Both the position numbers and the translations under genes were made by a program. From an uncultured Anaerolineae bacterium (GTDB taxonomy: Bacteria > Chloroflexota > Anaerolineae > VGOG01), in the NCBI GenBank assembly GCA_964510205.1, contig CAZEBW010000004.1, forward strand, positions 3,638-67,637: a DNA stretch of 64,000 nt, written 5' to 3'. Of this stretch, positions 5,184 through 51,995 are shown one piece after another (within the stretch, counting starts at the first letter, position 1; each line of letters opens with the position of its first letter). Under the pieces are notes generated by a model. The model ran no database searches. It had not been told where the DNA came from and saw only the letters and a list, made by a program, of their open reading frames with translations.

Positions 5184-6229
5184 AATGCGGTGACCGCGCC
5201 CTGCTGTCCCACCTCACCCTCTATCTCAAACGCTACATCTAAGAACTGTTCTACCACCCAGATATTGGTCAGCAAGTGCTGGGTGATCTCGCAGGTGGTG
5301 AAAGCTGACGGGCCAGAGGCTAGGGCCAGGGGCAGAATCAACTGATCGGCCAGGTACTTGCCCAGGCAGGCGCCGCTTTGGTGGTAGGCCATGAACTCGC
5401 GGCAGGCATCCTCGGCCACTTTCTCGGCAGGCTTGCCGCGCTTTCCCAAAGAGGAGAAGCCGGCCACTGCATTCTCGTACTCCGCCGCGAGAAAGAGGAC
5501 GGTGCCTTTGCCTGGCGAGGGCGCGTCCACGATCTCTACCTGCGGCTCGAAACCGCGCTCTCGCAGATATCCCTCCGCGCGCTTCTGCTGCCTCTGTCCG
5601 ATGTGGGCGGGCAGGTTGGAGGCCGCGGAGACGCCCCACAGGCGCTTCAGTTCGCCCCGCTGGGTCAAATCCAGGCCCGAAAGTTCGCTCTCTCCTCGGC
5701 CCTGGATTGCCACCGTCATCTCCCCTCCGCCTATGGGATACCAGCCCCACTTCTCGACCTCGGCTTTAGCTTCCAGGCCCGTGCGGGCCAGGGTGGGCAG
5801 GTAGACGTGTTTGAGGTAGTGAAAAGAGGGGCTCCAGGCCACGTGGGTGCCGCCGCGTACGGTCAGGCGGGATGAGCCGGAGGCGAAGGCCAGGGGCAGC
5901 AGCAGGGTTTGGGCGACCAGACTGGTTGCGCCCGCGCTTCCGCCCTTGCGGGCCTCGGCCACGTCGAATAAATACTGCCCAGCGCGAGGCGACGACCGAG
6001 GCTTGAAAGTCAGCTCCAGGGAGCCCAGGCTGGCGCCTTCTAGCTCGGCCTGGCAGACTTGAGCTGTGGCCCGGACCCCGGTGAGGTGTTGGGCTTGCAG
6101 GCCGGGCCTGCGGCGCTGAGCGCGGACGTTCTCGATGCGTGTGGGTTGGCCCAGGATCGCGGATAGGGTCAGGGAAGTGCGCAGCACCTGCCCGCCTCCC
6201 TCGCCATAAGAGCCATTGATGACGATCAT
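5117..6229 (-). CDS. rtcA: RNA 3'-terminal phosphate cyclase RtcA
   Basis: The ORF extends to 6301, but the likely start is MIVINGSYGEGGGQVLRTSLTLS, matching the RtcA N-terminus; conserved H (RGGTHVAWSPS) region; C-terminus TNIWVVEQF. Confidence 0.8.
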   Translation of the reverse strand: MIVINGSYGEGGGQVLRTSLTLSAILGQPTRIENVRAQRRRPGLQAQHLTGVRATAQVCQAELEGASLGSLELTFKPRSSPRAGQYLFDVAEARKGGSAGATSLVAQTLLLPLAFASGSSRLTVRGGTHVAWSPSFHYLKHVYLPTLARTGLEAKAEVEKWGWYPIGGGEMTVAIQGRGESELSGLDLTQRGELKRLWGVSAASNLPAHIGQRQQKRAEGYLRERGFEPQVEIVDAPSPGKGTVLFLAAEYENAVAGFSSLGKRGKPAEKVAEDACREFMAYHQSGACLGKYLADQLILPLALASGPSAFTTCEITQHLLTNIWVVEQFLDVAFEIEGEVGQQGAVTAFQNTRHTNPFRYSDSGKVSRMA

Positions 6230-6385
6230 CGTTCCTCCTTCTTCCCTCAGTGGCAGATGCAAATACCATACCACATTGTCCCCAAAAGTCAAATGGGTCA
6301 TTTTTCGCCTGGCAAAAACGCTCAGCCATTGGCCATCTCTCCAACGTGTATTTCAATTTGGGGGCAAGACCGAGAGACAGCGTCA

Positions 6386-11840: not shown

Positions 11841-13340
11841 TCATGGAAGCGGTGGCAGTAGTATCCTATTGATGGTTATGCCCCACTGGTCACTTCTTCG
11901 TTCAAGCCCTTCCATTAGTTGCTGGCATGCTGTGGCCTTGTTCGGCGGATCATGTACATCCTGTTGCCTGTATCCACATAACGCCTCATTCAGGAGCACG
12001 GCCATTTCCTGCACGATTTCTTTGTCCCAAATAGTCTTCATGTCGGCTTCGGTCAGTTTTTTCTTCTTGGTCTTCTTGTGGTTATTCTCACCAGATTCTC
12101 TAAAGAAGTGAGGTGCATGAACCGCTTTTTCCTTATTGACCTGGTAGTAAACTACTGGGGCAAGCTGCAAGACCCCATCTGCTAGTGCGACTTTCTGTTT
12201 GGGGCAACGGCATCTCAGCTCCATGGTCGGGATTACAGCTTGAATTTGGCTGTACAAGGGAAGCTGAAGAATACTTTGACCTTCTTCCAGCACCCTGATT
12301 TCGCGACTGTCTCCGATCACAGCAATCCTGTCGGGTGGGACGGTGAAGGTGAACGCCCTGTATCCAACGAGCACCAGAAGGACAAGCAAGAGTGGCAAGG
12401 CCGTACCCGCGGCAGTCAAGACAACGATGTGCAGTGAACTGCGCACGGAAAGCAGTATGCTCGCCAGCAGCATCAGTAGTACAATGACCACAAAGCCTGC
12501 CAACGCGCTGACAAAGGCGAGCACAGGGCTGGACAGTATTAGGTTGATGGCATCGCGAGCGTATGTGAGCAATGTCTCGAGTTGAATAGCAAGCGATGGT
12601 GGAGATTGCTCCGCCGCTCCGTCCTTCTCCTGCTCTGACGGCCTCATGCCTTGCGGACTGGCGTCTCCAGGTGGAAGGGATTCTTCGTCAATGTCCTCTG
12701 AGTTCATGGCTAGTCGTTCCGTCGTTTGCTCAGGCATACTCTCTTCACCCTCCTCTTGTTTTTGCTTCGCCTCTTGGCCTGACGGCTCCGTTTGTACGGG
12801 ACCAGCTCTTCCACGTCGAAGCGGTCCTCCGCCGGTATCTCCTGAATCCATGGCTACTTGTTGGTCTCGCAGGATCTTCCGGTATCGTGACTCGACTGTG
12901 CGCCTTAGGCGGCGGTCCATGTCCTGCAGCAGTTCCAGGCTGCGTGAACAGGCTTGACTTGCCTTGAGCCATTTGCCTTGGGCCTCGCACACCGTGGCCA
13001 ATCCAAAGAGGGCTACTGCTTGACTATGTTTGTCACTCAGAAAGAAGCGAGTGCTCTCTTGATACTTGTTGGCTGCCTCATCCAAGTGTTCCTGAGCGTG
13101 AAAGATAGCTGCGAGGTGAATAAGGGCTACCCCTTGAGCATATGAGTCATCCAACATGTCCAATTCGAGAGATCCTCTTGCTGATCTAATGCTTTGCTCA
13201 GCTATCGATTGGGCTGCTTTGTACCGGCCAGCTCGTCGCAGTTTGTCGGCCTCCTTGTTGAGCACGGTACCGCGATTAGTTCGTTCTCTTAGTTGGCGTA
13301 TGATCTGGTTGGCTTGTCGGTGGTAAGGATCGGATGTCAT
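11841..13340 (-). CDS. TPR-like / acidic linker / transmembrane / SPFH-like domain protein
   Basis: Likely start MTSDPYHRQ (rc ATG at 13338-13340). TPR-like helices, an E/D/Q-rich linker, two hydrophobic helices, then IAVIGDSREIRVLEEGQSILQLPLYSQIQAVIPTMELR...VVYYQVN resembling the start of an SPFH/band-7 domain. Confidence 0.5.
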   Translation of the reverse strand: MTSDPYHRQANQIIRQLRERTNRGTVLNKEADKLRRAGRYKAAQSIAEQSIRSARGSLELDMLDDSYAQGVALIHLAAIFHAQEHLDEAANKYQESTRFFLSDKHSQAVALFGLATVCEAQGKWLKASQACSRSLELLQDMDRRLRRTVESRYRKILRDQQVAMDSGDTGGGPLRRGRAGPVQTEPSGQEAKQKQEEGEESMPEQTTERLAMNSEDIDEESLPPGDASPQGMRPSEQEKDGAAEQSPPSLAIQLETLLTYARDAINLILSSPVLAFVSALAGFVVIVLLMLLASILLSVRSSLHIVVLTAAGTALPLLLVLLVLVGYRAFTFTVPPDRIAVIGDSREIRVLEEGQSILQLPLYSQIQAVIPTMELRCRCPKQKVALADGVLQLAPVVYYQVNKEKAVHAPHFFRESGENNHKKTKKKKLTEADMKTIWDKEIVQEMAVLLNEALCGYRQQDVHDPPNKATACQQLMEGLERRSDQWGITINRILLPPLP

Positions 13341-13419
13341 TGAAGTCCCCCCATAGAAGGAAAGCCCACCGGGATGCAGGAGAGTTGGGCCGGATAAACT
13401 AAGGTGTTCTGCGATATCG

Positions 13420-14727
13420 CTATGGGCTGCCAGGCGGCAATGCAATCGCTGATCTTATGGATTGCAGAGTGGCCATCACGTCGGAAGGCAGAAGGATCTT
13501 GGTCGCTGGATCGGAGGCCATTTTCTCCAGAGCTTCAATGAAACGCAAGGCTATGAATTGTGGAATCGGGATGTTCTTAGTCTCCATCTGACGGAAGCCT
13601 TCGGTGATGGCTATGATCATTCTAGTTTGAGCTTGTGCTCTGGCAACCTCAATCAGGTTATATACTTCAGCCTGTGCCTCGCCTTCAGTGATGAGGACTT
13701 GCTTGCGACTCTCCGCCATGCGCGCTTCCCAGTCTACTTGCCATTTCTTTTGCATTCCTTCCCTAATTTCCGGAGGCACCTCAATATTCAGCATCTGAAA
13801 GCTTATGATAGTGCCTCCCCAGCCTTCGGCTATCTTTCGCAGGGAATCTCGGACACGCTGCTTGATGTCGCTTTGAGGGAACGTGTTGGGATCCAGTGGG
13901 TCAAAGATATCATCCAAGTAACGTTTGCCAATCTCGTCGCGAAGCAGATTCTTGGCTACTTCGATAGTGGCGATTTCCCAGTCATAGCTATCGTAGGTAG
14001 CTTTGAGGACCGCCTCTCTAGAGAATGGATAGGGCTTCTCTGGGTTCCACACCTTGGCTGGATCCTGCGCGATGCGGAATAGAACGCTATAGTGGATGGT
14101 CACCGGTATGCCATCTTTGGTTGAGGCATTATCTAGCGTTCCTCTCCTGAACCGTTTCCGTGTGACGATGACCTTCCTGATACTTTCAAAAGGCTTGGTG
14201 CGCACTGCACCGGGCCCCTCAATGCGAGTGAATTTCCCCATCCGCTCGAAGACAACGGCTTGCTCGTTGCGTATTACGATCAAATTGGCTACCTTGAAGC
14301 CGGCGAGTGCGCCTTTGGACTTCACCTCGTCCACTTGGCCATCTTCAACGATGATGTAGCTTCCCAGGAATAGCTCTCCGGTGACAAAAGAGAGTAAATA
14401 CCGAAAGCAGTCCCACTGATTGCCGCCCCGGCTGACCAGTATGAGTTGCGAGGCCAGAAACAGGAGACTGCCTGTTAAGAATAGATAGACAGCCAGCCCC
14501 AATACTGCCCCCGTCAGGCCTCTCGTGACGAAGGAGAAGGTCAGAAACACCCCACTTGCAGTGAAGAATATCGCCAGCGCCACGCCCTTGCTCTGGCCCA
14601 TCCTGACAAGACACCCAAGGGAGACCACAGCGAGCCATACTAGGCCCCATTTGGGCTCGTGAACTACAGAGACTAAAATCAGTAGTGGAAGCAGGGCTAC
14701 GGACAACACAAGCAAGATCTTCTTCAT
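13420..14727 (-). CDS. SPFH/band-7 (stomatin/HflKC-like) domain membrane protein
   Basis: N-terminal 4-5 TM helices, then NEQAVVFERMGKFTRIEGPGAVRTKPFESIRKVIVTR...TKDGIPVTIHYSVLFRI (SPFH core) and a coiled-coil tail; start MKKILLVL. Confidence 0.7.
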   Translation of the reverse strand: MKKILLVLSVALLPLLILVSVVHEPKWGLVWLAVVSLGCLVRMGQSKGVALAIFFTASGVFLTFSFVTRGLTGAVLGLAVYLFLTGSLLFLASQLILVSRGGNQWDCFRYLLSFVTGELFLGSYIIVEDGQVDEVKSKGALAGFKVANLIVIRNEQAVVFERMGKFTRIEGPGAVRTKPFESIRKVIVTRKRFRRGTLDNASTKDGIPVTIHYSVLFRIAQDPAKVWNPEKPYPFSREAVLKATYDSYDWEIATIEVAKNLLRDEIGKRYLDDIFDPLDPNTFPQSDIKQRVRDSLRKIAEGWGGTIISFQMLNIEVPPEIREGMQKKWQVDWEARMAESRKQVLITEGEAQAEVYNLIEVARAQAQTRMIIAITEGFRQMETKNIPIPQFIALRFIEALEKMASDPATKILLPSDVMATLQSIRSAIALPPGSP

Positions 14728-14903
14728 AGCACAAGCTCTCCTTGTTTCTGTCAGCACTCTTAAGGTACGTGAGACTGCCGTCCAGTGCGTTCAACACGAG
14801 CTTATCTGACGGCGCCACAGGTATCACCCAGTTTCCATAGATCGAGGCAAAACCAAAAGGCCGCGGCTCGATATCGAAAACGTTTTGCAATGAGGGTGCT
14901 CAC

Positions 14904-16418
14904 TCAGCTCTGGGCGATCAAAATGGGGGAAGCCCAAGTCAAGTCATCCTTATTACGCATTGCCAGCTCTCGCCGGGCATCCAGCAGTGCCAGTTCAGGG
15001 CTGCCGTGCTGGAGCATAGAACGATAGAACGCCAGTGCCATTTCCTTGGCGCTCACTGCCGGCACTGACCACCTGTAGCCCAAAACAGACGGCACCCCTG
15101 ATTGGATAATTCCATCAGCGATACCCAGGTAGTCATCGTCCAGCAAATCAACCGGGCTGCCGGTACGAGTGCCCTCGCAGCACGTCAGGTGAAACAAACG
15201 GGTGTCAGAATCTTCCAACAGCCATCTCAGCTCATTTCCGGTCATTGGCTTTATATTCCCTGACCGGTTGCTGTCTTCCCAGAAGAACAATCTGCTCTGT
15301 TCCGGAGACCCCTCGTGAAAGACTCCGTGACCAACATAATGCACGATGTGATGCTTACACCCACGGAGCATTTCTTGCACTGCACTGTATGTAGCTGCTT
15401 CGGTTCTGACATGAGTCAAATCCAACCAGTTCAGTGGCGACAGCAAATCCACCAACTCTTCTCCGATTTTGTCAATCAGATCAATGCGTGGCTCAGTGTT
15501 GGACACGAGCAGTAGAACACGCAGGTTCTCGCCTGAACTGGCGAGACGTCGTATGAGTTCAGCAGAGATGGGTTCACGCCTCGTCACTACGCCTCGAATT
15601 TGGCGGACCATTGGATGGAGCAGTGTAAGGTAATCACCAGCCTCATCGGAAAAGATGAACTCCAGTGGCAATCCTGCCAGATCTCGGGTGGATTCAAACA
15701 CGAGGTGCAAGTATTGGTTCATTTGCGTCCTACCGAGTGCTCGGTGATACCCGTTGAGTACCGCAGAGTGCTGTTCGAACAGCAGGCGGTATAGCTCCCG
15801 TCCCACGTCTTTGATCAGAAAGCGGCGGTCTGCTGTGCTCATCATGCGTTCGCTTCCCCAGCGTGCAAAACGTGGAGCGTCGAGGCTTAGTGGATTGACA
15901 GAGGTGTATGTGAAGCGGATGTTGCCACGGCCCCGCACAAGAAGTCGCTGCCCTGGCTCTAGCGAGATTGTAATTTCGCACTCTTGGCTCGGCTCAAAGA
16001 CCGGCAATTGCCATTTCAATGACCTACTGATCACGCTATCCATCACTTTAACCACATCTTCTATCATGGTCTTTGGGAGGTACTCGGCTACAAGTCGCCG
16101 TCCAGTTGCATCAGGTTCCAGGGCGCGCCTCATCGTGTCAGGGGTACCATAGCCGGTGATAATGACAATCGGGAGCCCAGGGAATCGTCGTTTAAGCTCA
16201 GCAGCTAGATCAAGGCCTTCTAGGTTGCCTTCATCTGTCTCGTCCAAGCGCATGTCAAGTAGGGCTGCGTCGAAATGCTCTCGGTCAGACAAATCCAGGG
16301 CTCGCGCAACACTGGCAGCCGTTTTGGTTGCGTAGCCCTCGTCAATCAAGAGTTGTGAAAGGGTCACTCGCCAGTCAAACAAATCATCTACGATAAGCAC
16401 CTGGATTTGTTTAGTCAT
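14904..16418 (-). CDS. Response-regulator receiver fused to CHAT (caspase-like) protease domain
   Basis: REC: ILIVDDL...FDAALLDMRL...ITGYG...YLPKT. CHAT: IVHYVGHGVFH (catalytic His) and LFHLTCCEGT (catalytic Cys), C-terminus ALLDARRELAMRN...WASPILIAQS. Confidence 0.75.
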   Translation of the reverse strand: MTKQIQVLIVDDLFDWRVTLSQLLIDEGYATKTAASVARALDLSDREHFDAALLDMRLDETDEGNLEGLDLAAELKRRFPGLPIVIITGYGTPDTMRRALEPDATGRRLVAEYLPKTMIEDVVKVMDSVISRSLKWQLPVFEPSQECEITISLEPGQRLLVRGRGNIRFTYTSVNPLSLDAPRFARWGSERMMSTADRRFLIKDVGRELYRLLFEQHSAVLNGYHRALGRTQMNQYLHLVFESTRDLAGLPLEFIFSDEAGDYLTLLHPMVRQIRGVVTRREPISAELIRRLASSGENLRVLLLVSNTEPRIDLIDKIGEELVDLLSPLNWLDLTHVRTEAATYSAVQEMLRGCKHHIVHYVGHGVFHEGSPEQSRLFFWEDSNRSGNIKPMTGNELRWLLEDSDTRLFHLTCCEGTRTGSPVDLLDDDYLGIADGIIQSGVPSVLGYRWSVPAVSAKEMALAFYRSMLQHGSPELALLDARRELAMRNKDDLTWASPILIAQS

Positions 16419-17205
16419 GGCTGCTATCCGTGGGAGTTTCTATGGCTTTGATCACAGGGAGTGTGATCGCTATCGTCGTGCCGTGGCCAATCTCAGTATG
16501 TTTTACACTAATCTCTCCACCAAACCTGGCAAGTATCAAATGCGCTAACCAGAGACCCAGGCCCTTGTTGGTCCCGGTTGACGGAATCGGACCCTGAAAA
16601 AGATCGGCAAGAATGAGTTGCGGTATCCCTGTTCCGTTATCTGCAATCTCTACTCGCACTGTGTTGTCCGCGTCCACGTACTGGGTATGGATGTCAATAT
16701 GTCCGGGTTTTTTGCTTGTTGCTTGGATCGAGTTTTCGAGCACCGCCCGGAAAACCTCCGCGAGCAAGTGGCTATCAGCACGCACGGGAGGGACATCCTC
16801 TGGAAAATCAAAACTCACCCGTACTGTCTTGGAAGTGTGGCTAGCAGAAAGTTCTTCCCAGACCTCATACAGCAGTGAGTTTACGTCTAAGGGCATAGGC
16901 GGCTCACTCGGCTCTCTGAGTACTTCGACGGCGGCACTTAATTCGCTCAAACTGCTAATGGTCTTTTCTATGGCTGTGACCAGGTCGAGGGCGGCTCTAT
17001 CGTTGCTATTGATGTATTCCTTAAGACGACCGACTCGAACTCCCAGCAACCCAGTCAAGTTGGAGAGCTGGTGCAGTAATGCAGCAGAAGCCATCCCCAG
17101 TGCAATGAGGCTGGCCTCCTCCCCGTGGCTACGGTTAGGATGTGCACTTTCTTGCGGTAGGGGTGGATTTGGTCTCTGACTTTCCCGGTCATTTGGTGGA
17201 CTCAT
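16411..17205 (-). CDS. Cytoplasmic sensor histidine kinase (DHp + HATPase_c, no TM or sensor domain)
   Basis: H-box AALLHQLSNLTGLL; N, G1 (ADNGTGIP) and G2 (GLGLWLAHLI) boxes. Confidence 0.75.
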   Translation of the reverse strand: MSPPNDRESQRPNPPLPQESAHPNRSHGEEASLIALGMASAALLHQLSNLTGLLGVRVGRLKEYINSNDRAALDLVTAIEKTISSLSELSAAVEVLREPSEPPMPLDVNSLLYEVWEELSASHTSKTVRVSFDFPEDVPPVRADSHLLAEVFRAVLENSIQATSKKPGHIDIHTQYVDADNTVRVEIADNGTGIPQLILADLFQGPIPSTGTNKGLGLWLAHLILARFGGEISVKHTEIGHGTTIAITLPVIKAIETPTDSSHD

Positions 17206-17241
17206 TTGTCGGATTCTCCCAAGCGCGGCGCGTCCTTCAGT

Positions 17242-18768
17242 TCACTCCTGATGAATCAAGATAGGCGACAACCAGGTTGGATCGTTTCTGTCCATAGCGG
17301 CCAGCTCGCGCCTTGCGCTCCAGAGGGCGAACTCCGGCCCCCCTTGCTCCAATAAGGACTGGTAGAAAGCCAACGCCAGCCGACGGGCTCCATCATCTGA
17401 CACAGGCCAGCGGAAGCCCAGCACCGAGGGTGCGCCGGCCTGCGCGACAGCGTCGGCCAGCCCAAGGAAATCGTCATCCAGCAAAGCAGCCTGAGCGCCG
17501 CTGGCTGTGCCATAGCAACTGCTCATGTACACCAGACGTGCTTCCGAGCGCCTGAGTAGCATCTTTAGTTCGGTTGCTTTCATCGGCATGACGCCACCTT
17601 GCTTATTCTCCTGGGCCCAGAAGTATAGGCTGCTATCTTCAGGGGACTCGGTCCTGTACGAGCCATGTCCTGCGTAATGTACAATGTCGTAACTGGGCTT
17701 CCCCAACTCTGATCTTACGCGCTCATACGTGGCGCGCTCCGTGGGGATGAGTTTAACACTGACAGGGATGCAGTCCTGGCTCTTTAAGTACTCGTACAGT
17801 GCCTGCGCCTCGGCATCTACGCCGTCTATTGGAGGCTGTGTGTTAGAGGCGATAATCAGAATTCGCAATTCCTGAGTCAGTGCCAGCAGCGAAGGGGAAA
17901 TCAGGCTGCGTTTCGGGGTAGCATTGTATAGAAAACGGGCGAGGGGGTGTTGAAGTACCAGGTACTCTGGAGGATCATCCGAGCGCATAAATTCCAATGG
18001 TAGTCTGAGAAATTCCCTGGGCGTCTCAAAAAGCATTGAAAACGACTGGCTCTTGGCGCGCGCTTCCACATAGGCTTTTTCGGCTTCAGGGTGCTCAGTA
18101 AATATGTCACGCCACAGACTGTGGCCGATCTCCCCAACCTGGAAACGCAAATTGCTCACGTCTCTTCTGGCGAGTTCTGTCCGCCTTGCATAGCGTTCGA
18201 GTGCCACACGCAACACTTTCCACGAGCGCAAGGAACAGACGTGGCGACCGCGCGCCCTGATCACCAGAGGCTGTCCGGCTGTGAGTGATAGAGATAGCTG
18301 GGTAGCATCACCTGTCTTCTCAAACCTCGGCTTGGTTGCCTCCTGGCGTGCTTTCGCGATAGTCTCCAGAACTTGTTCAGCCACATCCGGGGTTTTTTCG
18401 ATGAAGTCAACTACTCCGAGATATCGAATCGCGCGTACAATTTGCTTGGTTCTCGGGTAGCGTGTGAGCAGGATGACGCGAACCCGCGGATTGAGGGCGC
18501 GGAATGCCATCGCCAGGCTCAATCCGCTTTCGTCCTCTTCATCATCTCCGTGCAGGCGCACGTCAATGAGAGCAAAGTCGAACGGTTCTTGCGTGACAGC
18601 AACCAGGGCTTGTTCCTCGTTGGCCGCTGACCGGACGGTGTATCCTTCATCGGAAAGTCGCCCTGCTAACGTGGTACAGAAATCGGCATGGTCATCTACT
18701 ATCAGAATCTTGCACATTGCTACCCTCTTCATCAACTGTCTGATGGGACGCTCCGGGTCATCCAGCAT
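17242..18768 (-). CDS. Response-regulator receiver fused to CHAT protease domain (second copy)
   Basis: REC: KILIVDDHADF...FDFALIDVRL...LTRYP...IEKT. CHAT His IVHYAGHGSY and Cys LVYMSSCYGT; start may be the internal M (MCKILIV). Confidence 0.75.
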   Translation of the reverse strand: MLDDPERPIRQLMKRVAMCKILIVDDHADFCTTLAGRLSDEGYTVRSAANEEQALVAVTQEPFDFALIDVRLHGDDEEDESGLSLAMAFRALNPRVRVILLTRYPRTKQIVRAIRYLGVVDFIEKTPDVAEQVLETIAKARQEATKPRFEKTGDATQLSLSLTAGQPLVIRARGRHVCSLRSWKVLRVALERYARRTELARRDVSNLRFQVGEIGHSLWRDIFTEHPEAEKAYVEARAKSQSFSMLFETPREFLRLPLEFMRSDDPPEYLVLQHPLARFLYNATPKRSLISPSLLALTQELRILIIASNTQPPIDGVDAEAQALYEYLKSQDCIPVSVKLIPTERATYERVRSELGKPSYDIVHYAGHGSYRTESPEDSSLYFWAQENKQGGVMPMKATELKMLLRRSEARLVYMSSCYGTASGAQAALLDDDFLGLADAVAQAGAPSVLGFRWPVSDDGARRLALAFYQSLLEQGGPEFALWSARRELAAMDRNDPTWLSPILIHQE

Positions 18769-19639
18769 TCCCCCAATTTGCCTGTATGTAACTCGTTGTC
18801 GCCTTTACGTCCAGGCTGCGAGTCGAATTGCCAATACGCACCCAGAACTTGTGAACATCGCCCGTCGCCAGGAACACCGGCTTTGGGCTTTTTTCAATCG
18901 CAACGATGCAGACGTGTTTACCATCTATGGGTTCGAAGCGTGTGCGAATGTATGGCATATATTCTAGACCCACATAGGTCTTGACAATATCCGTCAATGC
19001 CAATTGAAACCCATCGGTATTTGGCTTGCGCAGAGTTTGTAAGTCTTTTTCAATACCTAGCACCGTGCCATCGTCAGCGACGCCAATGAGTAGGGTCCCA
19101 CCCTTGCTGTTCAACATTCCTGTGATTGCCACGGCGATCGTTTCCTGCAGGCTCTTGTTAGTTGTGTTTTTCTTGAAATCCCAGCGGATACTGGACTTGA
19201 ATTCCACGTGGTCATTTTCACCTTGGGCAATCAAATTGAGTACCGAGCGTTCAAATGCGCGGTTCACGTACTCCGGCAGTTGGTCTACTTCAGATTTTTC
19301 CAGGAAGCCAAACGCTGGTGATACTCCCTCGCGATCAGGTTGAAGGACCTCCCTCACCATCCTGACGTTTGCATAGCCGGTCAAGATAATGATGGCCACA
19401 TGGGGGTCCTTCTCTCTGATCTCGCGCATAAGCAAGATGCCATCTTGGTTGTCCTCGTCGGCCTCGTCCAAGCGCACGTCCAGAACTGCGACGTGAAAAC
19501 GCTCGGCGTCCAACATTTGCAGAGCCTCAACTCTGCTGGATGCCGAGCGTACTTCATAGCCTTCGTCTGACAAAAGGCCCGACAATGTTGCGCACACGTC
19601 GGGCAGGTCATCTACTACGAGAACGCGACCTTTGTACAT
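18758..19639 (-). CDS. Response-regulator receiver fused to an AlbA_2 (Schlafen-like) domain
   Basis: Likely start MYKGRVLVVDD. REC with VAVLDVRL; C-terminal ENDHVEFKSSIRWDFKKN...TLLIGVADDGTVLGIEKD matches the AlbA_2/Schlafen N-domain signature. Confidence 0.65.
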   Translation of the reverse strand: MYKGRVLVVDDLPDVCATLSGLLSDEGYEVRSASSRVEALQMLDAERFHVAVLDVRLDEADEDNQDGILLMREIREKDPHVAIIILTGYANVRMVREVLQPDREGVSPAFGFLEKSEVDQLPEYVNRAFERSVLNLIAQGENDHVEFKSSIRWDFKKNTTNKSLQETIAVAITGMLNSKGGTLLIGVADDGTVLGIEKDLQTLRKPNTDGFQLALTDIVKTYVGLEYMPYIRTRFEPIDGKHVCIVAIEKSPKPVFLATGDVHKFWVRIGNSTRSLDVKATTSYIQANWGNAG

Positions 19640-19665
19640 GGCACTCCTGCCGATTGCATCTTGTC

Positions 19666-20067
19666 TTATCGTGCCAACACTTCCTGTACTATCTTGACCA
19701 ACTCTTCGGTCTGGGTTTTCGGGATATAGTTCGCTACAAGTCTCCGGCCCTGCGTATCTGGCTCCATTGCCCGTCTCATGGTATCCGGCGTGCCGTAGCC
19801 TGTGATCATTACGACTTCGGTAGTGGGCCAATGTTGTTTGATCTCATCCGCCAGGTCCAGCCCCTCGGTGTTACTCTCGTCCGTCTCGTCCAGGCGCATG
19901 TCCAGTACTGCCAGATCAAAATGGCTGGTTTTGAGCAACTCCAATGCCGCAGGCGAAGACTCGGCAACCTGGACATCGTATCCCGCGTCCTCCAACAAGC
20001 CACCGAGCGTCGTGCGCCAATCTAGCAGGTCATCTACCACCAGAATCTTCTGCCGTTTGTTTGTCAT
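19666..20067 (-). CDS. Single-domain CheY-like response regulator (paralog of the REC of the 14904 REC-CHAT)
   Basis: ILVVDDL...FDLAVLDMRLDETDESNTEGLDLADEIK...ITGYGTPDTMRRAMEPD...YIPKT, almost identical to the REC of 14904-16418. Confidence 0.8.
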   Translation of the reverse strand: MTNKRQKILVVDDLLDWRTTLGGLLEDAGYDVQVAESSPAALELLKTSHFDLAVLDMRLDETDESNTEGLDLADEIKQHWPTTEVVMITGYGTPDTMRRAMEPDTQGRRLVANYIPKTQTEELVKIVQEVLAR

Positions 20068-20459
20068 TCTCTTACTCCTTCGTGCTTACCATGGCGATTA
20101 CGCGGCACCTGTGGAAACAGAATGATCTCCCTGACCTGCTCGAAGAGATCCTCGCTTCCGAAAGACTTGGCGAAGTAGCGCATGGCTCCCAACCGGTAGG
20201 CCGCAAGCGCCTCTTGGGTCGTGGGTTGTACTGTTGTTACGACCACCCGCTTATCAGAGTATTTCTCAGCGATGACTGCAAGCACGTCCAGGCGGCGGGA
20301 GCTTGCGATGACCAGGTCGAACTGATCCGCTTCGAGTTCAGCGAGTGCTGCCTTGGTGTCAGGCGCAACGACGATTTCAAACTTGTTGAGATCGCTCTTG
20401 GCGAACTCAATCCAGCGAGGTTCGTCGTCAATGATCAGAATGCGAGTTTTCATGATCAC
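20064..20459 (-). CDS. Atypical receiver-like protein (pseudo-receiver; phospho-acceptor Asp apparently replaced)
   Basis: ILIIDDEP present, but the expected D in FDLVI-A-SSRRL is Ala. Confidence 0.55.
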   Translation of the reverse strand: MIMKTRILIIDDEPRWIEFAKSDLNKFEIVVAPDTKAALAELEADQFDLVIASSRRLDVLAVIAEKYSDKRVVVTTVQPTTQEALAAYRLGAMRYFAKSFGSEDLFEQVREIILFPQVPRNRHGKHEGVRE

Positions 20460-23400
20460 ACCTCCTTTCCCGTCCCCGGCGCTGGGATCTGAACCAGCAT
20501 TGTTGTTCCAGTGGGATCGGTCTCTTCTATTATAGCATCACCGCCAATACTTTGCAACATCAGTCGGCTGAGCCAGAGACCCAGACCTGCCCCTCCGCCT
20601 GGCTCCTTGGATGGGACTGGTTTGACGAAGAGACGTTGCTGGACTTGCAGTGGGATGCCCGGTCCTGTATCCTGAACCCGCACACAGATATTACTGTCGG
20701 TCAGACGACTGGTAACTGCTAACTGGCCACCCGCCTTCATTGCTCGGTAGGCATTGTCAACCAAGTTGTAGAAGACCTCAGCGATCTGACCGATCGGGGC
20801 CCGAATCTGCGGCAGCGATTGATCCAGGTCTAGGGTATGTTCGATCGTTGATCGAATGGGATCCGTTCGCCACTGTTCTCTCACTTTACCCACCACGTCA
20901 CTCAGCACTGCGTTAATGTCCACATCCTGATCCTCGACCTCTCGCAGCGGTTCTTGAATGCGCGCGATGATATCCGACGTATAGCGGGCGTTACGTTCGA
21001 TGATGTCAAGGATCTCTGCAATCGTATCATTCGACATATCAACGCGCTTCCGCAGGCGCGTCACGTTGGGAACGATGATGTTGAAGGTATTATTGACACG
21101 ATGTTGTAAAGCTGCGATGGCCGTGCCCAGTGTGGCCAAGCGCTTGGTCGCGATGACTTCACTGCGTGCCTCCTCATATAACCGGGCATTCTCAAGGGCA
21201 ATGGCTGCCTGGTTGGCCATAGAGGAGATGACCTGCAAGTCCTGTTCATCGTAGGCCTGCTCTCTTTCCCAGTCGTAGATAGCGATCACGCCCAGAACCC
21301 TATTCTCCAGAACCATCGGGACACCTATCCAAGATTTGGCGACACGCCCGATGAACTCTTGATGTCCGGGCTGTCCATACCACGCTTTAGATTCCACTTG
21401 GGTGCGATGCAGGATTGGCTTCTTGGTAAGGATGACTTCTTCGGTCTTACCCCGCTTCTCCATATCAGCCTTGCGGGGATCGTAATGCACCTGCTCACCG
21501 TGCTCCGTTGCCAGACCGAAGCGGATCATCCCTGTTTCCTCGTCATACAGCGCGATGTACATGTCCTGTGCGCCGGTCAACTCCCTGGCCTGCTCGTAGA
21601 TTAGCTCCAGAATCTCATCTTGCTTCAGACGAATACCGGAGGTTAGTGCCTGTCCTACCTCATTCAGTGCCGCCAACGCCTGAACGCGCCGTGCGAGCTG
21701 CTGGTTGATCTCGTAGTAAAGCGTTGCATTATCCAACGCGATTGCCGCTTGGTTGGCCACAGAGGAGATGACCTGCAAGTCCTGTTCATCGTAGGCCTGC
21801 TCTCTTTCCCAGTCATAAATGGCGATCATACCCAGTACCTTCTCACCTGTGACCATGGGAACGCCCAAGTAAGAAGGCTGAACACGCCCGATGAACTCTT
21901 GATGTCCGGGCTGTCCATACCACGCTTTAGATTCCACTTGGGTGCGATGCAGGATTGGCTTCTTGGTAAGGATGACTTCTTCGGTCTTACCCCGCTTCTC
22001 CATATCAGCCTTGCGGGGATCGTAATGCACCTGCTCACCGTGCTCCGTTGCCAGACCGAAGCGGATCATCCCTGTTTCCTCGTCATACAGCGCGATGTAC
22101 ATGTCCTGTGCGCCGGTCAACTCCCTGGCCTGCTCGTAGATTAGCTCCAGAATCTCATCTTGCTTCAGACGAATACCGGAGGTTAGTGTCTGTCCCACCT
22201 CGTTCACTGCCTGTATAGCTTTATACAAGCGTGCGCTTTTAATAGCAACCGCTGCTGCCCCAGCTAGGGCCTCAACCAGACGCATGTGATCGTCTGTAAA
22301 GGCTCCGATTTGGGTACTCTCCAGATTGAGCGTTCCAATCACTCTGTCACGGTGTATCAACGGTGTTGTGAGTTCGGATTGTACTTCCTCAAACCACTCC
22401 TTGTAGTACGGATCGCTTTTGATATCGTTGCAAAGATATGTCTTTCTACTCAAGGCAACGTGTCCGTTGATGCTCGTCTCGTCTAGGGGTAGTCTCGTGA
22501 GGGTTCGCGTCGGCGTCTCATCCCTCTTGTTTCTCGCCCCAAATCGCAGTTCACGTGTCCGCTCGTCCAGCAACCAAATACTCGTATACTTGGCTGGCGT
22601 CAGCCTGGCCGCTTGCTCTGCGATTTGCTCCAGCAGATCCTCTAGGGAAGCAGTGCCAATGAGCGCGTATAGGTTCTGAAGAGCTCTGATATCATCAATT
22701 CGCTCTTGTAGGCTAGTCTGAGCCTCTTCGTACACACGGGCGTTATAGATAGCTGTCGCCGCTTGATTAGCGAACAGCTCGATAGCCCCCCGTTGCTCAG
22801 GAGTGAAGGGTTGTCGGCTCCGGTAATTGACGAACATAGCGCCCACGGTTTCGCCTGCTGCTTCGAGGGGGACGGCGGCTGACGATAGGATTCCCTCGCG
22901 CACTACAAAGCGCTTTTCCGGGCGCTCAGGGCGCTCTACGGTGAATGGGCCGGTGAGCAGGGTATCCGTCTGAGTATCGGGAGAGTAGAGGGGCTCTCCA
23001 CCCTCGACCACTTTCACAACGACATCATCCTTGAATATTTCGTCCTTGACAACTGTGGGGTCTCGGCGCTCTCCTTCCAAGATAGGTGGCATGATGTAAC
23101 GGTCATCCGCCTCAACGTACTGGTACACATCCACGAGATCGGCACCCAATACACTCCTGGCACTTCGCGCCACCTGACGCAATACCTCTCTCAACCCCTG
23201 TGCCGAAAGCTCAGCCGAGAGTATTCGTCCCCCAATCTGGTGCAGCCTCTGCAAGACTGCAGCCCGGCTGGTTGCCTGCTCAAGAAGTTGAGCATTGTGT
23301 ACAGCCACGGCGGACTGGCTGGCCACCGCCTCTAACAGCATCTGATCGTGCTCGTCAAAGCCGCTCAGCCCGTCCATATCAGCAGAGATCACCCCAATAA

Positions 23401-24193
23401 CCTCGTCTTGCAAGATTATGGGCGCCAGCACCATTGAGCGCTCGACGATGTCTGACGACAAACCGGGGACAAACTGAGGGTGCTTGACCGCATCCGGGAC
23501 GAGTTCTGATTGCTTGGTTTGGGCTACCCACCCGGCCAACCCGACCCCTTGGGCGAACTGCTGTCGTGCGATGCCTGCTGACGAGGCAGCTTCCAACGCT
23601 AGGTCACCGCTCTTATCCACTAGAAAAACGCTGATGTGCTTGCAATCCAGCACTCTTTCTGCGGCTTGCATAATGCGTGCGAAAAGATCGGCACGGCGCA
23701 ATTCGGAACTGATCAAGAGGCTCACTGCGTTCAGGGTCGCCAGATCCTGAATTCGACGCTGCGTGGCAGCCACTTGAGCGGAAGAACTCTCAATCAGCGC
23801 CTTCTCGAAATCAGTGAAATCCCTTGCCTCACGGGTATAAACGTCAAGCACACCAACGATTTTCCTTTTTACTCGTAGTGGTACCACCATAGCCGACTTC
23901 AGTCCCATAGCGGTGGTTTCTGGTTTGTACTTCCAGCGAGCATCGGTGTCAACGTCTGTCACGACGATTGCCTGTTCAGTCGCAAAAACGTCAGACGCGA
24001 CACTGGGCTCATCCAGGCGCAGAAACGCATCGCGAACGTATTCCTCTGACAACTCTGTCGCTGCAGCGATCCGGAGGGTTTCCCCCGTTTCATCGGCAAG
24101 CCAGATACAGGCCGGCAGTCCCAGAGTCTGGCTTATGGTCTCCACCACGGGTTGAAAGAACTGCTTTTTATCAAGTTCTTGAGAGGGGATCAT
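20456..24193 (-). CDS. Large cytoplasmic multi-GAF-domain sensor histidine kinase (1245 aa)
   Basis: At least 5-6 GAF-like modules, coiled coil, H-box ALQHRVNN, HATPase_c (DTGPGIP...GLGLWLSR); no TM helices. Confidence 0.8.
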   Translation of the reverse strand: MIPSQELDKKQFFQPVVETISQTLGLPACIWLADETGETLRIAAATELSEEYVRDAFLRLDEPSVASDVFATEQAIVVTDVDTDARWKYKPETTAMGLKSAMVVPLRVKRKIVGVLDVYTREARDFTDFEKALIESSSAQVAATQRRIQDLATLNAVSLLISSELRRADLFARIMQAAERVLDCKHISVFLVDKSGDLALEAASSAGIARQQFAQGVGLAGWVAQTKQSELVPDAVKHPQFVPGLSSDIVERSMVLAPIILQDEVIGVISADMDGLSGFDEHDQMLLEAVASQSAVAVHNAQLLEQATSRAAVLQRLHQIGGRILSAELSAQGLREVLRQVARSARSVLGADLVDVYQYVEADDRYIMPPILEGERRDPTVVKDEIFKDDVVVKVVEGGEPLYSPDTQTDTLLTGPFTVERPERPEKRFVVREGILSSAAVPLEAAGETVGAMFVNYRSRQPFTPEQRGAIELFANQAATAIYNARVYEEAQTSLQERIDDIRALQNLYALIGTASLEDLLEQIAEQAARLTPAKYTSIWLLDERTRELRFGARNKRDETPTRTLTRLPLDETSINGHVALSRKTYLCNDIKSDPYYKEWFEEVQSELTTPLIHRDRVIGTLNLESTQIGAFTDDHMRLVEALAGAAAVAIKSARLYKAIQAVNEVGQTLTSGIRLKQDEILELIYEQARELTGAQDMYIALYDEETGMIRFGLATEHGEQVHYDPRKADMEKRGKTEEVILTKKPILHRTQVESKAWYGQPGHQEFIGRVQPSYLGVPMVTGEKVLGMIAIYDWEREQAYDEQDLQVISSVANQAAIALDNATLYYEINQQLARRVQALAALNEVGQALTSGIRLKQDEILELIYEQARELTGAQDMYIALYDEETGMIRFGLATEHGEQVHYDPRKADMEKRGKTEEVILTKKPILHRTQVESKAWYGQPGHQEFIGRVAKSWIGVPMVLENRVLGVIAIYDWEREQAYDEQDLQVISSMANQAAIALENARLYEEARSEVIATKRLATLGTAIAALQHRVNNTFNIIVPNVTRLRKRVDMSNDTIAEILDIIERNARYTSDIIARIQEPLREVEDQDVDINAVLSDVVGKVREQWRTDPIRSTIEHTLDLDQSLPQIRAPIGQIAEVFYNLVDNAYRAMKAGGQLAVTSRLTDSNICVRVQDTGPGIPLQVQQRLFVKPVPSKEPGGGAGLGLWLSRLMLQSIGGDAIIEETDPTGTTMLVQIPAPGTGKEV
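21209..22290. repeat. 540-bp tandem duplication (2 copies) of one GAF module inside the histidine kinase gene, with a ~320-nt 100% identical core
   Basis: 21343-21662 equals 21883-22202 at nucleotide level (the + strand ORFs 21359-21604 and 21749-22144 translate identically); flanks ~75-85% identical. Confidence 0.75.
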
Positions 24194-24228
24194 GGGTCAC
24201 TCTCCTTGTCATCTGTAAATGGGCAGAT

Positions 24229-25569
24229 TCAATTATGAGGTTGGTGTCTCCAGACTTCCAATGACTCCCTATATCCCGCTTCCGAAAATGCTAACCCCTT
24301 CTCCCTCAGCATCATAGCGGTGAGAAGGTGAGGTAATCCTTTCTTCTTTTCCAGGAAGACGATTTGTGGGCCGGAAAGCGTACGCCTACCATTCTTCTTC
24401 AGGAATTGCATGAGCTGGCGACGTCCGCGCTCAACGGTCTTTAAGAAACGCTGTGCCTCGGTTGAGAAATAGGATTCCAGTTTCTCCTCGTCCTCCGGCG
24501 CCGCTCGCGAAGCGTTGCGCACTGTTTGGGAAATGCAATCTATCAGTGTGGGTAGAAACCCCCTGGTTTCGATGCCCAGAACAATCTGCCGCGTTACGAC
24601 ACCTCGAATCAATAGCTTAATGAGACGCTCTCGCCCATTCTTACCTGGAGGTGGAGCGCCATCTGCGACTAGGAAATACAGCGCCTTTAGATAATCTGCC
24701 ATCACATGTTCGCTGGCAGTGATCAACGATTCTGGCAGGTCAGGTGCGCGAACGAGACTATGTATGGTGTCTGTGATCGGTTGGTAACTACTTATCTCAA
24801 ACACTGATTGAGCATCTTGCAGGATCATTGCCACGCGCTCAGTGCCAATCACCGTTTCGAAGAAAGGCTCCGTCATCGGTTGGAGCCTTTGGGTCTTAGT
24901 GTCTATCTCGGTGCTGACAAAGAGTGAATTGGCGAATTCAACGAACCGACCGCACTGGCAAGGCGGCCGACAATCGGGGCCGCAGCCAAAGACCGCGCCT
25001 CGATCAAAGAACATCTCAGTATTGGGCCCGCATTTACGATAGCGAACTACCCCTTCAATGCCATTTCCTTGTTTCCAGAGGTTGTCCTTGACTCCCAGAC
25101 CTATGATCTGCTCTTCAGGCATCCCGATACTCCGCCAAGCTTGATGAGCCTCTACATCCTCGTCAAACGCATGCTTTGAAATCTTACCCCCGGCGAAATA
25201 AGTGACCCATATGTTGTCTGGCTTGATTCTCAGGTTTGAGGTCATGAACTCCCACATTTGCTGGATAACAGTTGCCTTGCTGAGAGCATTAAAGGAAAAA
25301 GCGGCGGGCATTTCAAACAAGCTTAGGTGCACATTGTCGGTTCCAACGGTGTCAATGTCGAAATATCTGAAGCACTTTTGCACCAGTGCATACTTATGCC
25401 CGGCACGCTTGCCCATCTGATCAAGAGCCTTTTCAAATTGCGGTAATCCAGCACTCATTACGAACGACATAGGAATAGAGGGATGCAACAGCGAGGCACT
25501 AGGCAGAACGGAGAATCCTTTGCCCTGGTAATAATCGAGGAACGTTTGGCTAATGGCTGGGGATCGCAT
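24229..25569 (-). CDS. Alanyl-tRNA synthetase catalytic-fragment paralog (AlaRS N-terminal ~441-aa-like, divergent)
   Basis: SQTFLDYYQGKGFSVLPSASLL...QFEK...VQKCFRYFDIDTVG...HLSLFEMPAAFSF...GKNGRERLIKLLIRG is collinear with the AlaRS N-terminus (FLDFF..GH..VPS..LLFTNAGM..QKCIR..D.VG..HHTFFEML.NFSFGDYFK..GNEGRGYVLRRIIRR). No editing or C-Ala domains; several canonical motif residues are changed. Confidence 0.6.
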   Translation of the reverse strand: MRSPAISQTFLDYYQGKGFSVLPSASLLHPSIPMSFVMSAGLPQFEKALDQMGKRAGHKYALVQKCFRYFDIDTVGTDNVHLSLFEMPAAFSFNALSKATVIQQMWEFMTSNLRIKPDNIWVTYFAGGKISKHAFDEDVEAHQAWRSIGMPEEQIIGLGVKDNLWKQGNGIEGVVRYRKCGPNTEMFFDRGAVFGCGPDCRPPCQCGRFVEFANSLFVSTEIDTKTQRLQPMTEPFFETVIGTERVAMILQDAQSVFEISSYQPITDTIHSLVRAPDLPESLITASEHVMADYLKALYFLVADGAPPPGKNGRERLIKLLIRGVVTRQIVLGIETRGFLPTLIDCISQTVRNASRAAPEDEEKLESYFSTEAQRFLKTVERGRRQLMQFLKKNGRRTLSGPQIVFLEKKKGLPHLLTAMMLREKGLAFSEAGYRESLEVWRHQPHN

Positions 25570-25620
25570 TTTCTAGCTCCAAATCACGCGATACACCGAA
25601 CGTTATTGTAGATGCATGAA

Positions 25621-25649
25621 TATTATATCAAACCTGTCCTTAAATGTCA
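25621..25649 (-). promoter_or_regulatory. Perfect sigma70 consensus promoter (TTGACA-17-TATAAT on the minus strand) driving the AlaRS-like / HK / REC / CHAT operon
   Basis: Reverse complement reads ttgacatttaaggacaggtttgatataat; ~45-nt leader with ggag RBS before the ATG at 25569. Confidence 0.55.
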
Positions 25650-25704
25650 AGGCATCCAAAATACTGGATAGACATACACCGTATCGTTCAAGGAGTTGGG
25701 GTAA

Positions 25705-26070
25705 TCACACATTCGGGTGATGGCACTTCTTCCCAGTCGAAAATATCTCTAGCGAAGGGGCATCATATCGAGGCCCTCCTTCGAAGTCCCTAACGAACCG
25801 GTAAAACTCGTCAATGAAGCTGACTAATTCATCAGTATGCTCACTGATCGCCTTGACATCAGGGGAGATGTTCTCCTTGAGTTCCCTCTTGAACTTTTCA
25901 TCCTTCTCCTCAAGAGCAGCCCAATCCCAAGCCCCGTCAAGGTACTTGCGAATCTCCCCTAGCACATGATCTCGTGCGAGTGTGAGATCAGATGGGCAAT
26001 CTTTTGCCTTTAATCTACGATAATCTAATTCCATTTCCCTGCAAAGGGCTGGCGCATGGTCTCTGTCCAT
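25705..26070 (-). CDS. Hypothetical protein (possible C-terminal part of a frameshifted lipoprotein)
   Basis: 121-aa ORF, no domain; low-GC. Confidence 0.3.
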   Translation of the reverse strand: MDRDHAPALCREMELDYRRLKAKDCPSDLTLARDHVLGEIRKYLDGAWDWAALEEKDEKFKRELKENISPDVKAISEHTDELVSFIDEFYRFVRDFEGGPRYDAPSLEIFSTGKKCHHPNV

Positions 26071-49234: not shown

Positions 49235-49276
49235 CTCCGAGGTAATGCGTTTCTCCCGCTATTCTTGTGCCTGCTC

Positions 49277-51981: not shown

Positions 51982-51995
51982 ATCAGATCAATCTC

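Follow-up and report, generated by a model that had tools for sequence, protein, structure and literature searches.

A candidate Detocs-like two-component operon with an AlaRS-like protein and receiver-fused Schlafen and CHAT effectors in an Anaerolineae bacterium

In the defensive two-component system Detocs, a kinase (DtcA), a stand-alone receiver (DtcB), and an effector fused to a receiver domain (DtcC) act together (Rousset et al. 2023; 10.1101/2023.01.24.525353). Defence requires both the His of the kinase and the Asp of the receiver, and the effectors are exchanged between operons. When the Asp of DtcB is mutated, Detocs becomes toxic, and DtcB has been proposed to buffer stray phosphate (10.1101/2023.01.24.525353). 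Here, we describe an operon of eight minus-strand genes in a 64,000-nucleotide stretch of DNA from an uncultured Anaerolineae bacterium (contig CAZEBW010000004.1; the whole stretch is called the window, and all positions refer to it). The operon combines an alanyl-tRNA synthetase (AlaRS)-like protein and two histidine kinases with receiver (REC) domains, three of which are fused to a Schlafen-type AlbA_2 domain or to caspase-like CHAT domains. Judged from its domains and conserved residues, it is with moderate probability a Detocs-like defensive two-component system, i.e., a phosphorelay that would have toxic enzymes and not transcription factors as outputs.

Detocs is the closest characterised analogue, and the adjacent genes for a kinase, an Asp-bearing stand-alone receiver, and REC-effectors that define it are all found in the window. 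The likeness is one of architecture and of residues, as the His and Asp that Detocs requires are conserved in the operon. The two differ in their sensors, as DtcA senses through TPRs whereas the large kinase of the operon carries a GAF array and has the AlaRS-like protein as a partner gene. Unlike Detocs, the operon encodes two small receivers, one of which is often a pseudo-receiver in the family, and it has a second tier consisting of another kinase and REC-CHAT protein. Detocs has one effector, mostly a PNP (ATP nucleosidase), whereas the operon family has two to three REC-effectors (Schlafen and CHAT) and no PNP is encoded in the window. The named hosts of the family are so far Chloroflexota.

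The effector domains have described relatives as well. Csx29/TPR-CHAT (Craspase), SAVED-CHAT, separase, and DdvA have in common with the operon proteins a caspase-fold CHAT domain with a His/Cys dyad, and in these known cases an upstream signal is needed to release the protease from an inactive state. The known CHAT proteins respond to target-RNA-bound Cas7-11 or to cyclic-oligonucleotide-driven filaments, whereas activation in the operon would come from phosphorylation of a receiver Asp. Prokaryotic Schlafens with an Ex4(E/D)xK motif, namely pSlfn1-55 (Nat Microbiol 2026, PMC13056530) and the CRISPR-associated Cash (PMC13462974), cleave tRNA and stop phage. Like the operon protein, they are AlbA_2/Schlafen effectors with this motif fused to a sensor or regulatory domain; unlike in pSlfn and Cash, the partner in the operon is a two-component receiver within a multi-gene phosphorelay. 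The most frequent pSlfn partners named in the main text of the first study are HisKinase-like (GHKL), HTH, DUF5929, Ig-like, DUF262, and TBP-like domains, and the words receiver and response regulator are not present in that main text (PMC13056530).

The principle of a phosphotransfer-gated immune effector is thus already known (Detocs 2023; bacterial Schlafens 2026). New are the proposed sensor made up of an AlaRS-like protein and GAF domains, the use of several effectors (CHAT and Schlafen) in one design, and the family as a whole. Full-text literature searches turned up no account of the operon, of proteins with a REC-CHAT fusion, or of a kinase-coupled AlaRS paralog. An earlier interpretation of the window made from its letters alone (the sequence-only reading) had called the system uncharacterised, which is correct for the operon but not for the underlying idea. 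When searched with PADLOC v2.0.0, the operon gave receiver-level matches only (PDC-M60B/C, SduA), next to weak CHAT matches (BovA, SAVED_CHAT), and on these grounds the possibility that it is a catalogued defence system of the PADLOC library was rejected.

The eight open reading frames (ORFs) span 14904-25569 and are closely packed, with junctions that are either overlaps of 4-8 nt (GTGA, ATGA) or spacers of 26-40 nt. The promoter in front of them is the sole perfect TTGACA-17-TATAAT site across 15 kb (11.5-26.5 kb). The coordinates, ORF sizes, junctions, and promoter agree with the sequence-only reading, which had placed eight packed genes behind one perfect sigma70 promoter. Its gene order was right overall with one exception: it put the CheY-like receiver before the pseudo-receiver, and the pseudo-receiver gene in fact precedes that of the free receiver (Table 1). 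All domains that it had assigned to the eight proteins score above the Pfam gathering thresholds. Alignments of homologs place the probable starts of REC-CHAT1 at 18717 (MCKIL) and of REC-AlbA_2 at 19639 (MYKGR). No transmembrane (TM) segment was predicted in any of the eight proteins. The GC content is 0.536 in the operon and 0.601 in its flanks. An ORF of 121 amino acids (aa) without Pfam match lies immediately upstream of the promoter (25705-26070, minus strand). At the other end, a 181-aa ORF with a TTG start (14345-14890, minus strand) overlaps with the spacer that separates REC-CHAT2 from the start of the neighbouring Band_7 gene and is probably spurious.

Table 1. Positions of the operon genes, of features within them, and of the adjoining membrane protein genes in the window
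Feature	Position	Strand	Basis
AlaRS-like paralog, 446 aa	24229..25569	-	Pfam tRNA-synt_2c, E 5e-70
Large cytoplasmic histidine kinase, 1245 aa	20456..24193	-	Pfam six GAF stretches + HATPase_c
Pseudo-receiver, ~129 aa counted from ATG at 20453	20064..20459	-	Pfam Response_reg, weak, 42 bits
Free single-domain receiver, 133 aa	19666..20067	-	Pfam Response_reg
REC-Schlafen/AlbA_2, 293 aa	18758..19639	-	Pfam Response_reg + SLFN_AlbA_2, E 3e-18
REC-CHAT protease 1, 491 aa	17242..18717	-	Pfam Response_reg + CHAT, E 1.5e-33
Small sensorless histidine kinase, 264 aa	16411..17205	-	Pfam HATPase_c, E 5.5e-18
REC-CHAT protease 2, 504 aa	14904..16418	-	Pfam Response_reg + CHAT, E 4e-27
Sigma70-type promoter, TTGACA + 17-nt spacer + TG-extended TATAAT	25622..25650	-	12/12 matches
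Tandem GAF-unit duplication inside the large kinase gene (arms 21342-21641 and 21882-22181)	21342..22181	-	
Acidic receiver insertions	19894-19911, 19472-19489, 18556-18573, 16248-16265	-	Alignment to CheY
SPFH/Band_7 membrane protein	13420..14757	-	Pfam Band_7, E 9e-18; 3 predicted TM segments
TPR-TM-weakly SPFH-like membrane protein	11841..13445	-	TPR_12, E 6e-10; predicted TM segments

The residues needed for phosphotransfer are present throughout. In the large kinase the phospho-accepting His is H1031 within ALQHRVNN (21089-21112), and in the small kinase it is His45; this H-box His is invariant in 46/46 kinases of the family, and HATPase_c scores above threshold in both kinases of the window. 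The full set of DD, acceptor Asp, T, and K positions is found in four of the five receivers. The claim that the two-component circuit is intact is thus supported by both its phospho-His and its phospho-Asp sites. The fifth receiver, encoded by the first of the two small REC genes, keeps the DD, T, and K positions when aligned with CheY. A Ser stands at the position of CheY D57, and it is therefore a pseudo-receiver. Among 36 homologs, the acceptor position of this small receiver is occupied by Asp in 14, Ser in 14, Asn in 6, and Gly in 2, so that Asp is lost in 22/36.

The free receiver has an intact Asp56, and Asp is kept at the second-receiver position in 26/29 homologs. By analogy, it is proposed to be a phosphate buffer or shuttle. 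The sequence-only reading had already suggested a phosphate sink without citing DtcB, which provides the precedent for such a role. Its supporting statement, that the free receiver is nearly identical to the receiver of REC-CHAT1, did not hold: the identity is 39% to this proximal receiver (17242) and 59% to that of the distal REC-CHAT protein (14904). All four Asp-containing receivers carry an acidic insertion, RLDE[T/A]DE...G, directly after the acceptor Asp; the homologs share this insertion, whereas CheY lacks it. Possibly it is a peculiarity of the beta3-alpha3 loop in this family and has an effect on phosphotransfer or dephosphorylation.

Over 225 aa, the small kinase is 30% identical to the DHp-CA core of the large kinase, of which it is a paralog. 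This relationship, together with the 59% identity between the receiver of REC-CHAT2 and the free receiver, suggests that the extra pair arose by duplication within the system. The small kinase gene is also present in a relative with about 80% identity (L100/L101), and the second kinase and REC-CHAT2 are found only in these close relatives of the window and are absent from most loci. A gene of 220 aa that follows REC-CHAT in other genomes was considered as a counterpart of the small kinase and dismissed; it has no similarity to it and belongs to the flanking uvrC neighbourhood. The length of the large kinase varies from 555 to 1927 aa across the family. In the window, its gene contains two GAF repeat arms of 300 nt each that are 100% identical and recur with a 540-nt period, and the kinase of the ~80%-identical relative L101 (1084 aa) has one GAF unit fewer. 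Such a perfect repeat stems either from a duplication that is very recent or from the assembly.

Both CHAT domains are well supported at the profile level, with 117 and 95.7 bits for PF12770 at a cutoff of 24. The acceptor Asp and the catalytic dyad are Asp52, His351 (motif at 17662-17679), and Cys401 (motif at 17506-17523) in REC-CHAT1 and Asp55, His364, and Cys414 in REC-CHAT2. Both motif pairs, HYAGHG/SSCYGT and HYVGHG/TCCEGT, are present, in agreement with the motifs given in the sequence-only reading. Across an alignment of 41 homologs that contains the two window paralogs (37% identical to each other), the receiver Asp, the His of GHG, and the Cys do not vary. An AF2 model of REC-CHAT1 built from the homolog alignment (pLDDT 87.9, pTM 0.83) was searched with Foldseek, and the best PDB matches were the separase protease domain (5fby), Csx29 (8eex_B), and SAVED-CHAT (8tl0) with E values of ~1e-9 to 1e-7. 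DdvA was also among the best matches, and receiver domains came after. The modelled CHAT domain thus has a caspase/separase-like fold. Genes for Csx30, gasdermin, or PCaspase were not found near the operon.

The Schlafen-type domain of the third fusion matches SLFN_AlbA_2 (PF04326) with 67 bits at a cutoff of 25.3, and its best PDB sequence matches, all weak, are SLFN8/13, SLFN12, and SLFN14. Behind the receiver with its acceptor Asp54, the protein contains the motif ENDHVEFK (E141-x4-E146-x-K148) and D189, and these four residues are invariant in 33 homologs. They align with E205/E210/D248 of SLFN13 and with the prokaryotic Ex4(E/D)xK motif; the motif and the equivalent of SLFN13 D248 were defined from the literature (PMC13056530, PMC13462974, PMC5862951). 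The protein is proposed to be a phospho-activated RNA (tRNA) nuclease. The sequence-only reading had expected phospho-regulated proteolysis as the output of the circuit. Effector swapping behind a common core (see below) backs the gating of an effector by a receiver, but proteolysis would be one of two outputs, as the Schlafen protein keeps Ex4ExK.

The first gene of the operon encodes a protein that has the aminoacylation and tRNA-recognition domains of AlaRS only and is devoid of the editing and C-Ala domains. It scores 224 bits against the NCBIfam alaS equivalog TIGR00344, whose cutoff is 457, and matches profile positions 2-417 of 847; by this equivalog test it is not an alanyl-tRNA synthetase. 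A comparison of 45 paralogs with PDB AlaRS sequences and five canonical enzymes revealed which parts of the active site are retained. The paralogs keep the motif-2 Arg (R68), FEM, W165, N214, and GxER of motif 3, and the class II ATP-binding residues R68, G242, E244, and R245 are invariant. In E. coli AlaRS, the alanine pocket is formed by D235 (the alanine-binding Asp), G237, and V214, and Lys73 lies in the motif-2 loop. The corresponding residues of the paralogs, E238, V240, and L216, respectively, are changed in 45/45 sequences, and the canonical D/G/V are found in 5/5 canonical enzymes. Moreover, a 4-residue deletion in the motif-2 loop removes GGKH. All 45 paralogs have an invariant CxxxCxxxCxC cluster (C196/C200/C204/C206; 24952-24984, minus strand) that is absent from canonical AlaRS and could be a metal or redox site. 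It is plausible from these residues that the binding of ATP and of the tRNA acceptor stem is kept and that canonical-style alanine activation is not.

A precedent for such a protein is known from ascamycin biosynthesis, in which the truncated AlaRS-like aminoacyl-transferase AcmF uses Ala-tRNA as donor; AcmF is encoded in an antibiotic gene cluster and has reportedly lost most of its ATP-binding residues (PMC12945691). Its use of Ala-tRNA indicates that such AlaRS fragments can take on new chemistry. AcmF, which was compared by its description, likewise consists of aminoacylation and tRNA-recognition domains only and has the same Asp-to-Glu change. Unlike AcmF, the family described here has retained N214 and the arginines of motifs 2 and 3, has the Cys4 cluster in addition, and neighbours a histidine kinase. 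A dedicated tRNA gene or T-box beside the paralog was rejected: ARAGORN, run on the window and on nine related loci, found no tRNA gene, and an Rfam scan of 11-27 kb returned nothing credible. In some distant loci (L091, L092, L095), two AlaRS-like modules are fused in one protein (ORFs of ~920 aa), and in several (L072, L073, L082, L084, L087, and L098) a GAF-only protein is encoded just upstream of the AlaRS-like gene. These variants might help to define how the input module is coupled to the kinase.

Relatives of the operon were found in metagenomes and metagenome-assembled genomes, and where the source names an organism it is almost always Chloroflexi/Anaerolineae. The families are large, with 320 matches for REC-CHAT, ~1000 for REC-AlbA_2, and at least 120 clusters for the AlaRS-like protein, all of ~446 aa. 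At 50-91% protein identity, the common order is AlaRS-like, GAF kinase, REC of ~118 aa, REC of ~133 aa, REC-AlbA_2, and REC-CHAT, and one relative with 80% identity has all eight genes together with two Band_7 genes and a TPR gene. The operon is thus retained as a unit, which bears out the gene-neighbourhood conservation for which the sequence-only reading had proposed a search. A metagenome scan seeded with the alignment of the AlaRS-like paralogs gave 80 loci, which were pooled with loci fetched earlier. Downstream sequence of 1.5 kb or more was available for 63 loci (some of them redundant). In 59 of these, the GAF/kinase gene is among the next two genes after the AlaRS-like gene, and in one of the other four it is the third. 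This adjacency persists down to ~40% identity. Judged by gene order, the AlaRS-like protein, the GAF kinase, and the small receiver(s) are a fixed core that is followed by swappable REC-fused effectors. A single-sequence scan of GTDB genomes with very specific peptides returned two paralog loci and canonical AlaRS genes and is uninformative on prevalence.

The variety of the effectors became apparent when 75 distinct proteins encoded after the kinase were analysed with Pfam. Response_reg was found in 52, CHAT in 13, AlbA_2 in 9, TCAD9 with an APH kinase in 5, TIR in 4, and EAD11 and caspase (C14) in 2 each. Single proteins had a PNP, HD-CE, trypsin, calcineurin-like phosphoesterase (Metallophos), or nucleoside deoxyribosyltransferase-like (Nuc_deoxyrib_tr) domain. 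Examples are REC-TIR effectors (L046, L070, L092), an HD-CE-REC protein followed by a NACHT protein (L027), a PNP-family effector (L065, PNP_UDP_1), and the fusions REC-EAD7-CHAT (P0049) and TIR-REC-CHAT (P0007). One locus combines REC-TCAD9-APH with REC-CHAT and Trypco1 (L015), and in another REC-EAD11 adjoins EAD11-trypsin, with matching EAD11 domains on both (L019). A constant core with swapped immune and cell-death effectors is a pattern that fits conflict or immune systems. Moreover, the GC content of the operon is below that of its flanks in 20/22 long related loci. One related locus (L010; JGI Ga0307377_10001204) shows the operon twice with a 16.3-kb period and 100% identical AlaRS-like copies (1228-2568 and 17546-18886). 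It was treated as a probable assembly loop and not as biology, and the loop probably arose from strain variants that differ in GAF number (kinase of 1047 aa versus 1231 aa in L011).

The accessory domains of these loci point to a further group of described systems. The definitions of the EAD, TCAD, and Trypco domains come from work on conflict systems in multicellular bacteria (PMC7159879). The NTP-dependent ternary systems of Kaur, Burroughs, Iyer, and Aravind 2020/2021 (PMC7159879, PMC8195603) have EAD7, EAD11, TCAD9-APH, Trypco1, TIR, caspase/CHAT, and trypsin in common with the related loci, as well as a bias to filamentous or multicellular hosts. Their core, on the other hand, is vWA-MoxR-VMAP, STAND, or a GTPase, none of which is encoded in the operon, whose core is the AlaRS-like protein and the GAF kinase. 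No histidine kinases were reported among the vWA-associated effectors, receivers were described to act independently of kinases, and a core with an aminoacyl-tRNA-synthetase-like protein and GAF domains is not part of that description (PMC7159879, PMC8195603).

Taken together, the kinase core, the four receivers, the Schlafen motif, and both CHAT dyads appear catalytically intact, and we infer a growth-arrest or cell-death system, probably antiviral, with an AlaRS-like input module. In the mechanism that we propose, the AlaRS-like protein would serve as the input and either report on the state of tRNA or make an adenylate-type ligand for the GAF domains; its retained ATP motifs and tRNA-acceptor-stem domain, remodelled amino-acid pocket, and new Cys4 site are consistent with such a function. 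The large kinase would autophosphorylate at His1031 and pass the phosphate to the receivers. The free receiver would drain stray signal, as proposed for DtcB, and the pseudo-receiver may possibly act as a buffer too. Above a threshold, phosphorylation would drive dimerisation of the receiver domains and thereby switch on CHAT protease 1 as well as the Schlafen nuclease, which would cleave RNA/tRNA. An added lineage-specific tier, either an amplifier or a fail-safe, would be formed by REC-CHAT2 and the second kinase, which has no sensor. Translation shut-off and proteolysis would then lead to growth arrest or cell death, with phage infection in filamentous Chloroflexota as the most likely trigger and the adjoining SPFH/TPR membrane proteins as candidate partners or substrates.

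The role assigned to the first gene is the more tentative part of this proposal. As one possibility, the AlaRS-derived protein may be a tRNA-state sensor or a synthetase of an adenylate/Ap4A-type signal that controls the kinase through the GAF array. The output would then not be regulation of translation, but the tRNA-cutting Schlafen nuclease and the caspase-like proteases would be released. The AlaRS-derived protein would be a bacterial counterpart of GCN2, in which a HisRS-like tRNA-sensing domain is coupled to a protein kinase; the likeness, an aminoacyl-tRNA-synthetase-derived module linked to a protein kinase, is by analogy only. If this is true, the cell would monitor the integrity of its translation machinery (for example, phage attack on tRNAs or their charging) and answer with self-inflicted translation shut-off and proteolysis. 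Prokaryotic immunity or programmed cell death would thereby gain a new principle of sensing, and a paralog of an aminoacyl-tRNA synthetase would have acquired a new function.

Several observations weigh against a defensive role. The operon does not lie within a defence island; genes for Mur ligase, Lon, RtcA, and glycosyltransferases make up its flanks, and the window is free of integrase and transposase genes. A uvrC neighbourhood is shared beside the operon in several genomes, which points to long vertical inheritance, and mobile defence genes do not typically show this. In IMG/VR, relatives of the system were not found, and PADLOC, which may not include Detocs models, gave no match for either kinase or the AlaRS-like protein. 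No fusion of the AlaRS-like protein with the GAF kinase was found, their link being gene adjacency, and a consensus promoter before toxic effectors requires very tight post-translational control. A phage or mobile origin was rejected on the absence of IMG/VR relatives and of integrase and transposase genes in the window. The lack of a defence island and of mobility genes and the residence beside uvrC make a physiological role a serious rival. The AlaRS-like/GAF kinase pair would then sense amino-acid or tRNA-charging status or, by way of the Cys4 cluster, a redox state and drive growth arrest, filament fragmentation, or programmed death in multicellular Anaerolineae as a non-immune stress or differentiation circuit. 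The nearest analogies would be HetF-type CHAT proteins in cyanobacterial development and GCN2-type tRNA sensing. The housekeeping chromosomal context, the uvrC-side synteny that is kept across divergent genomes, and the occurrence of a broad family in one phylum of filamentous bacteria all suit such a circuit; an input derived from an aminoacyl-tRNA synthetase naturally suggests a metabolic or translation signal, and REC-CHAT2 has a weak HetF match in NCBIfam. We consider this explanation rather unlikely, however, as the effector slots swap TIR, caspase, PNP, HD, trypsin-EAD, and Schlafen domains, and arms-race diversification fits this better than a fixed developmental programme. The GC content that is consistently under that of the flanks and the rapid expansion and contraction of the sensor array also speak against it. 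Furthermore, the physiological and immune readings are not exclusive; the argument of Kaur et al. is that systems of this kind have both roles.

The nature of the effectors also bears on whether the operon could be a conventional, non-lethal regulatory network. REC-AlbA_2 would then be a DNA-binding transcription factor, the CHAT proteins would perform limited cleavage of the DdvA type, possibly of a membrane anti-sigma-like or SPFH/TPR partner, and the AlaRS paralog would be a co-regulated enzyme. AlbA_2 is indeed often annotated as a helix-turn-helix (HTH)-regulator module, one homolog is named "predicted HTH transcriptional regulator", the CHAT-containing anti-sigma factor DdvA is among the structural matches, and membrane TPR/SPFH proteins adjoin the operon. 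Yet Pfam found no HTH domain in the REC-AlbA_2 protein, in which Ex4ExK and the Asp are invariant, and the same slots elsewhere hold TIR, PNP, caspase, and HD domains, none of which regulates genes. AlbA_2 is therefore unlikely to act purely in transcription, and several parallel effectors next to a buffer receiver, as in Detocs, also argue against a conventional network, which we regard as improbable overall. Even less credit is due to the notion that the AlaRS paralog or the second kinase/REC-CHAT pair are fortuitous neighbours that are merely co-transcribed. It draws on the restriction of the second pair to L100/L101, but the conserved adjacency of the AlaRS-like and GAF-kinase genes, the overlapping or abutting junctions behind a single promoter, and the paralogy of the second pair with the large kinase core and the free receiver make it very improbable, and for the core it is already largely refuted. 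The Detocs-like defensive system thus remains the reading that we prefer.

If this reading is right, Detocs, the only characterised defensive two-component system, would be extended to a large and distinct family in an under-studied phylum, in which one phosphorelay gates several killer enzymes together (a Schlafen RNase and caspase-like proteases). For the first time, a paralog of an aminoacyl-tRNA synthetase would be linked with a histidine kinase in one circuit, and this would offer a testable route to what phage-defence systems sense. Beyond that, CHAT and Schlafen enzymes under the control of receivers could be used as protease and RNase tools that phosphorylation switches.

The genes for the SPFH/Band_7 and TPR membrane proteins (11841-14757) are directly downstream of the operon, and the C-terminal part of the TPR protein has weak similarity to its Band_7 neighbour (E 0.009). 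Band_7 genes also flank the system in L001, L010, L012, and L100. They are upstream of it in 9/30 loci with enough upstream DNA and downstream of it in the window, L100, L057, and L010, and TPR genes occur alongside Band_7 in L012 and L100. Given this recurrence, the SPFH/Band_7 and TPR membrane proteins may be part of the system, as an accessory or a target.

The remaining window is ordinary chromosome with genes for Mur ligase, GH99, Lon, glycosyltransferases, and RtcA and a cluster for envelope glycosylation. The gene for the RNA 3'-terminal phosphate cyclase RtcA (5117-6301, minus strand) lies ~5.5 kb past the TPR gene; RNA-end chemistry of this type is relevant to tRNA cleavage and repair in general. 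The glycosylation cluster (38882-57305, minus strand) encodes four tandem PMT_2-type glycosyltransferases, followed by LPG_synthase_TM, two type-I phosphodiesterases, an LVIVD beta-propeller, and a GT4 protein, and its GC content falls to 0.54-0.57 at 50-54 kb.

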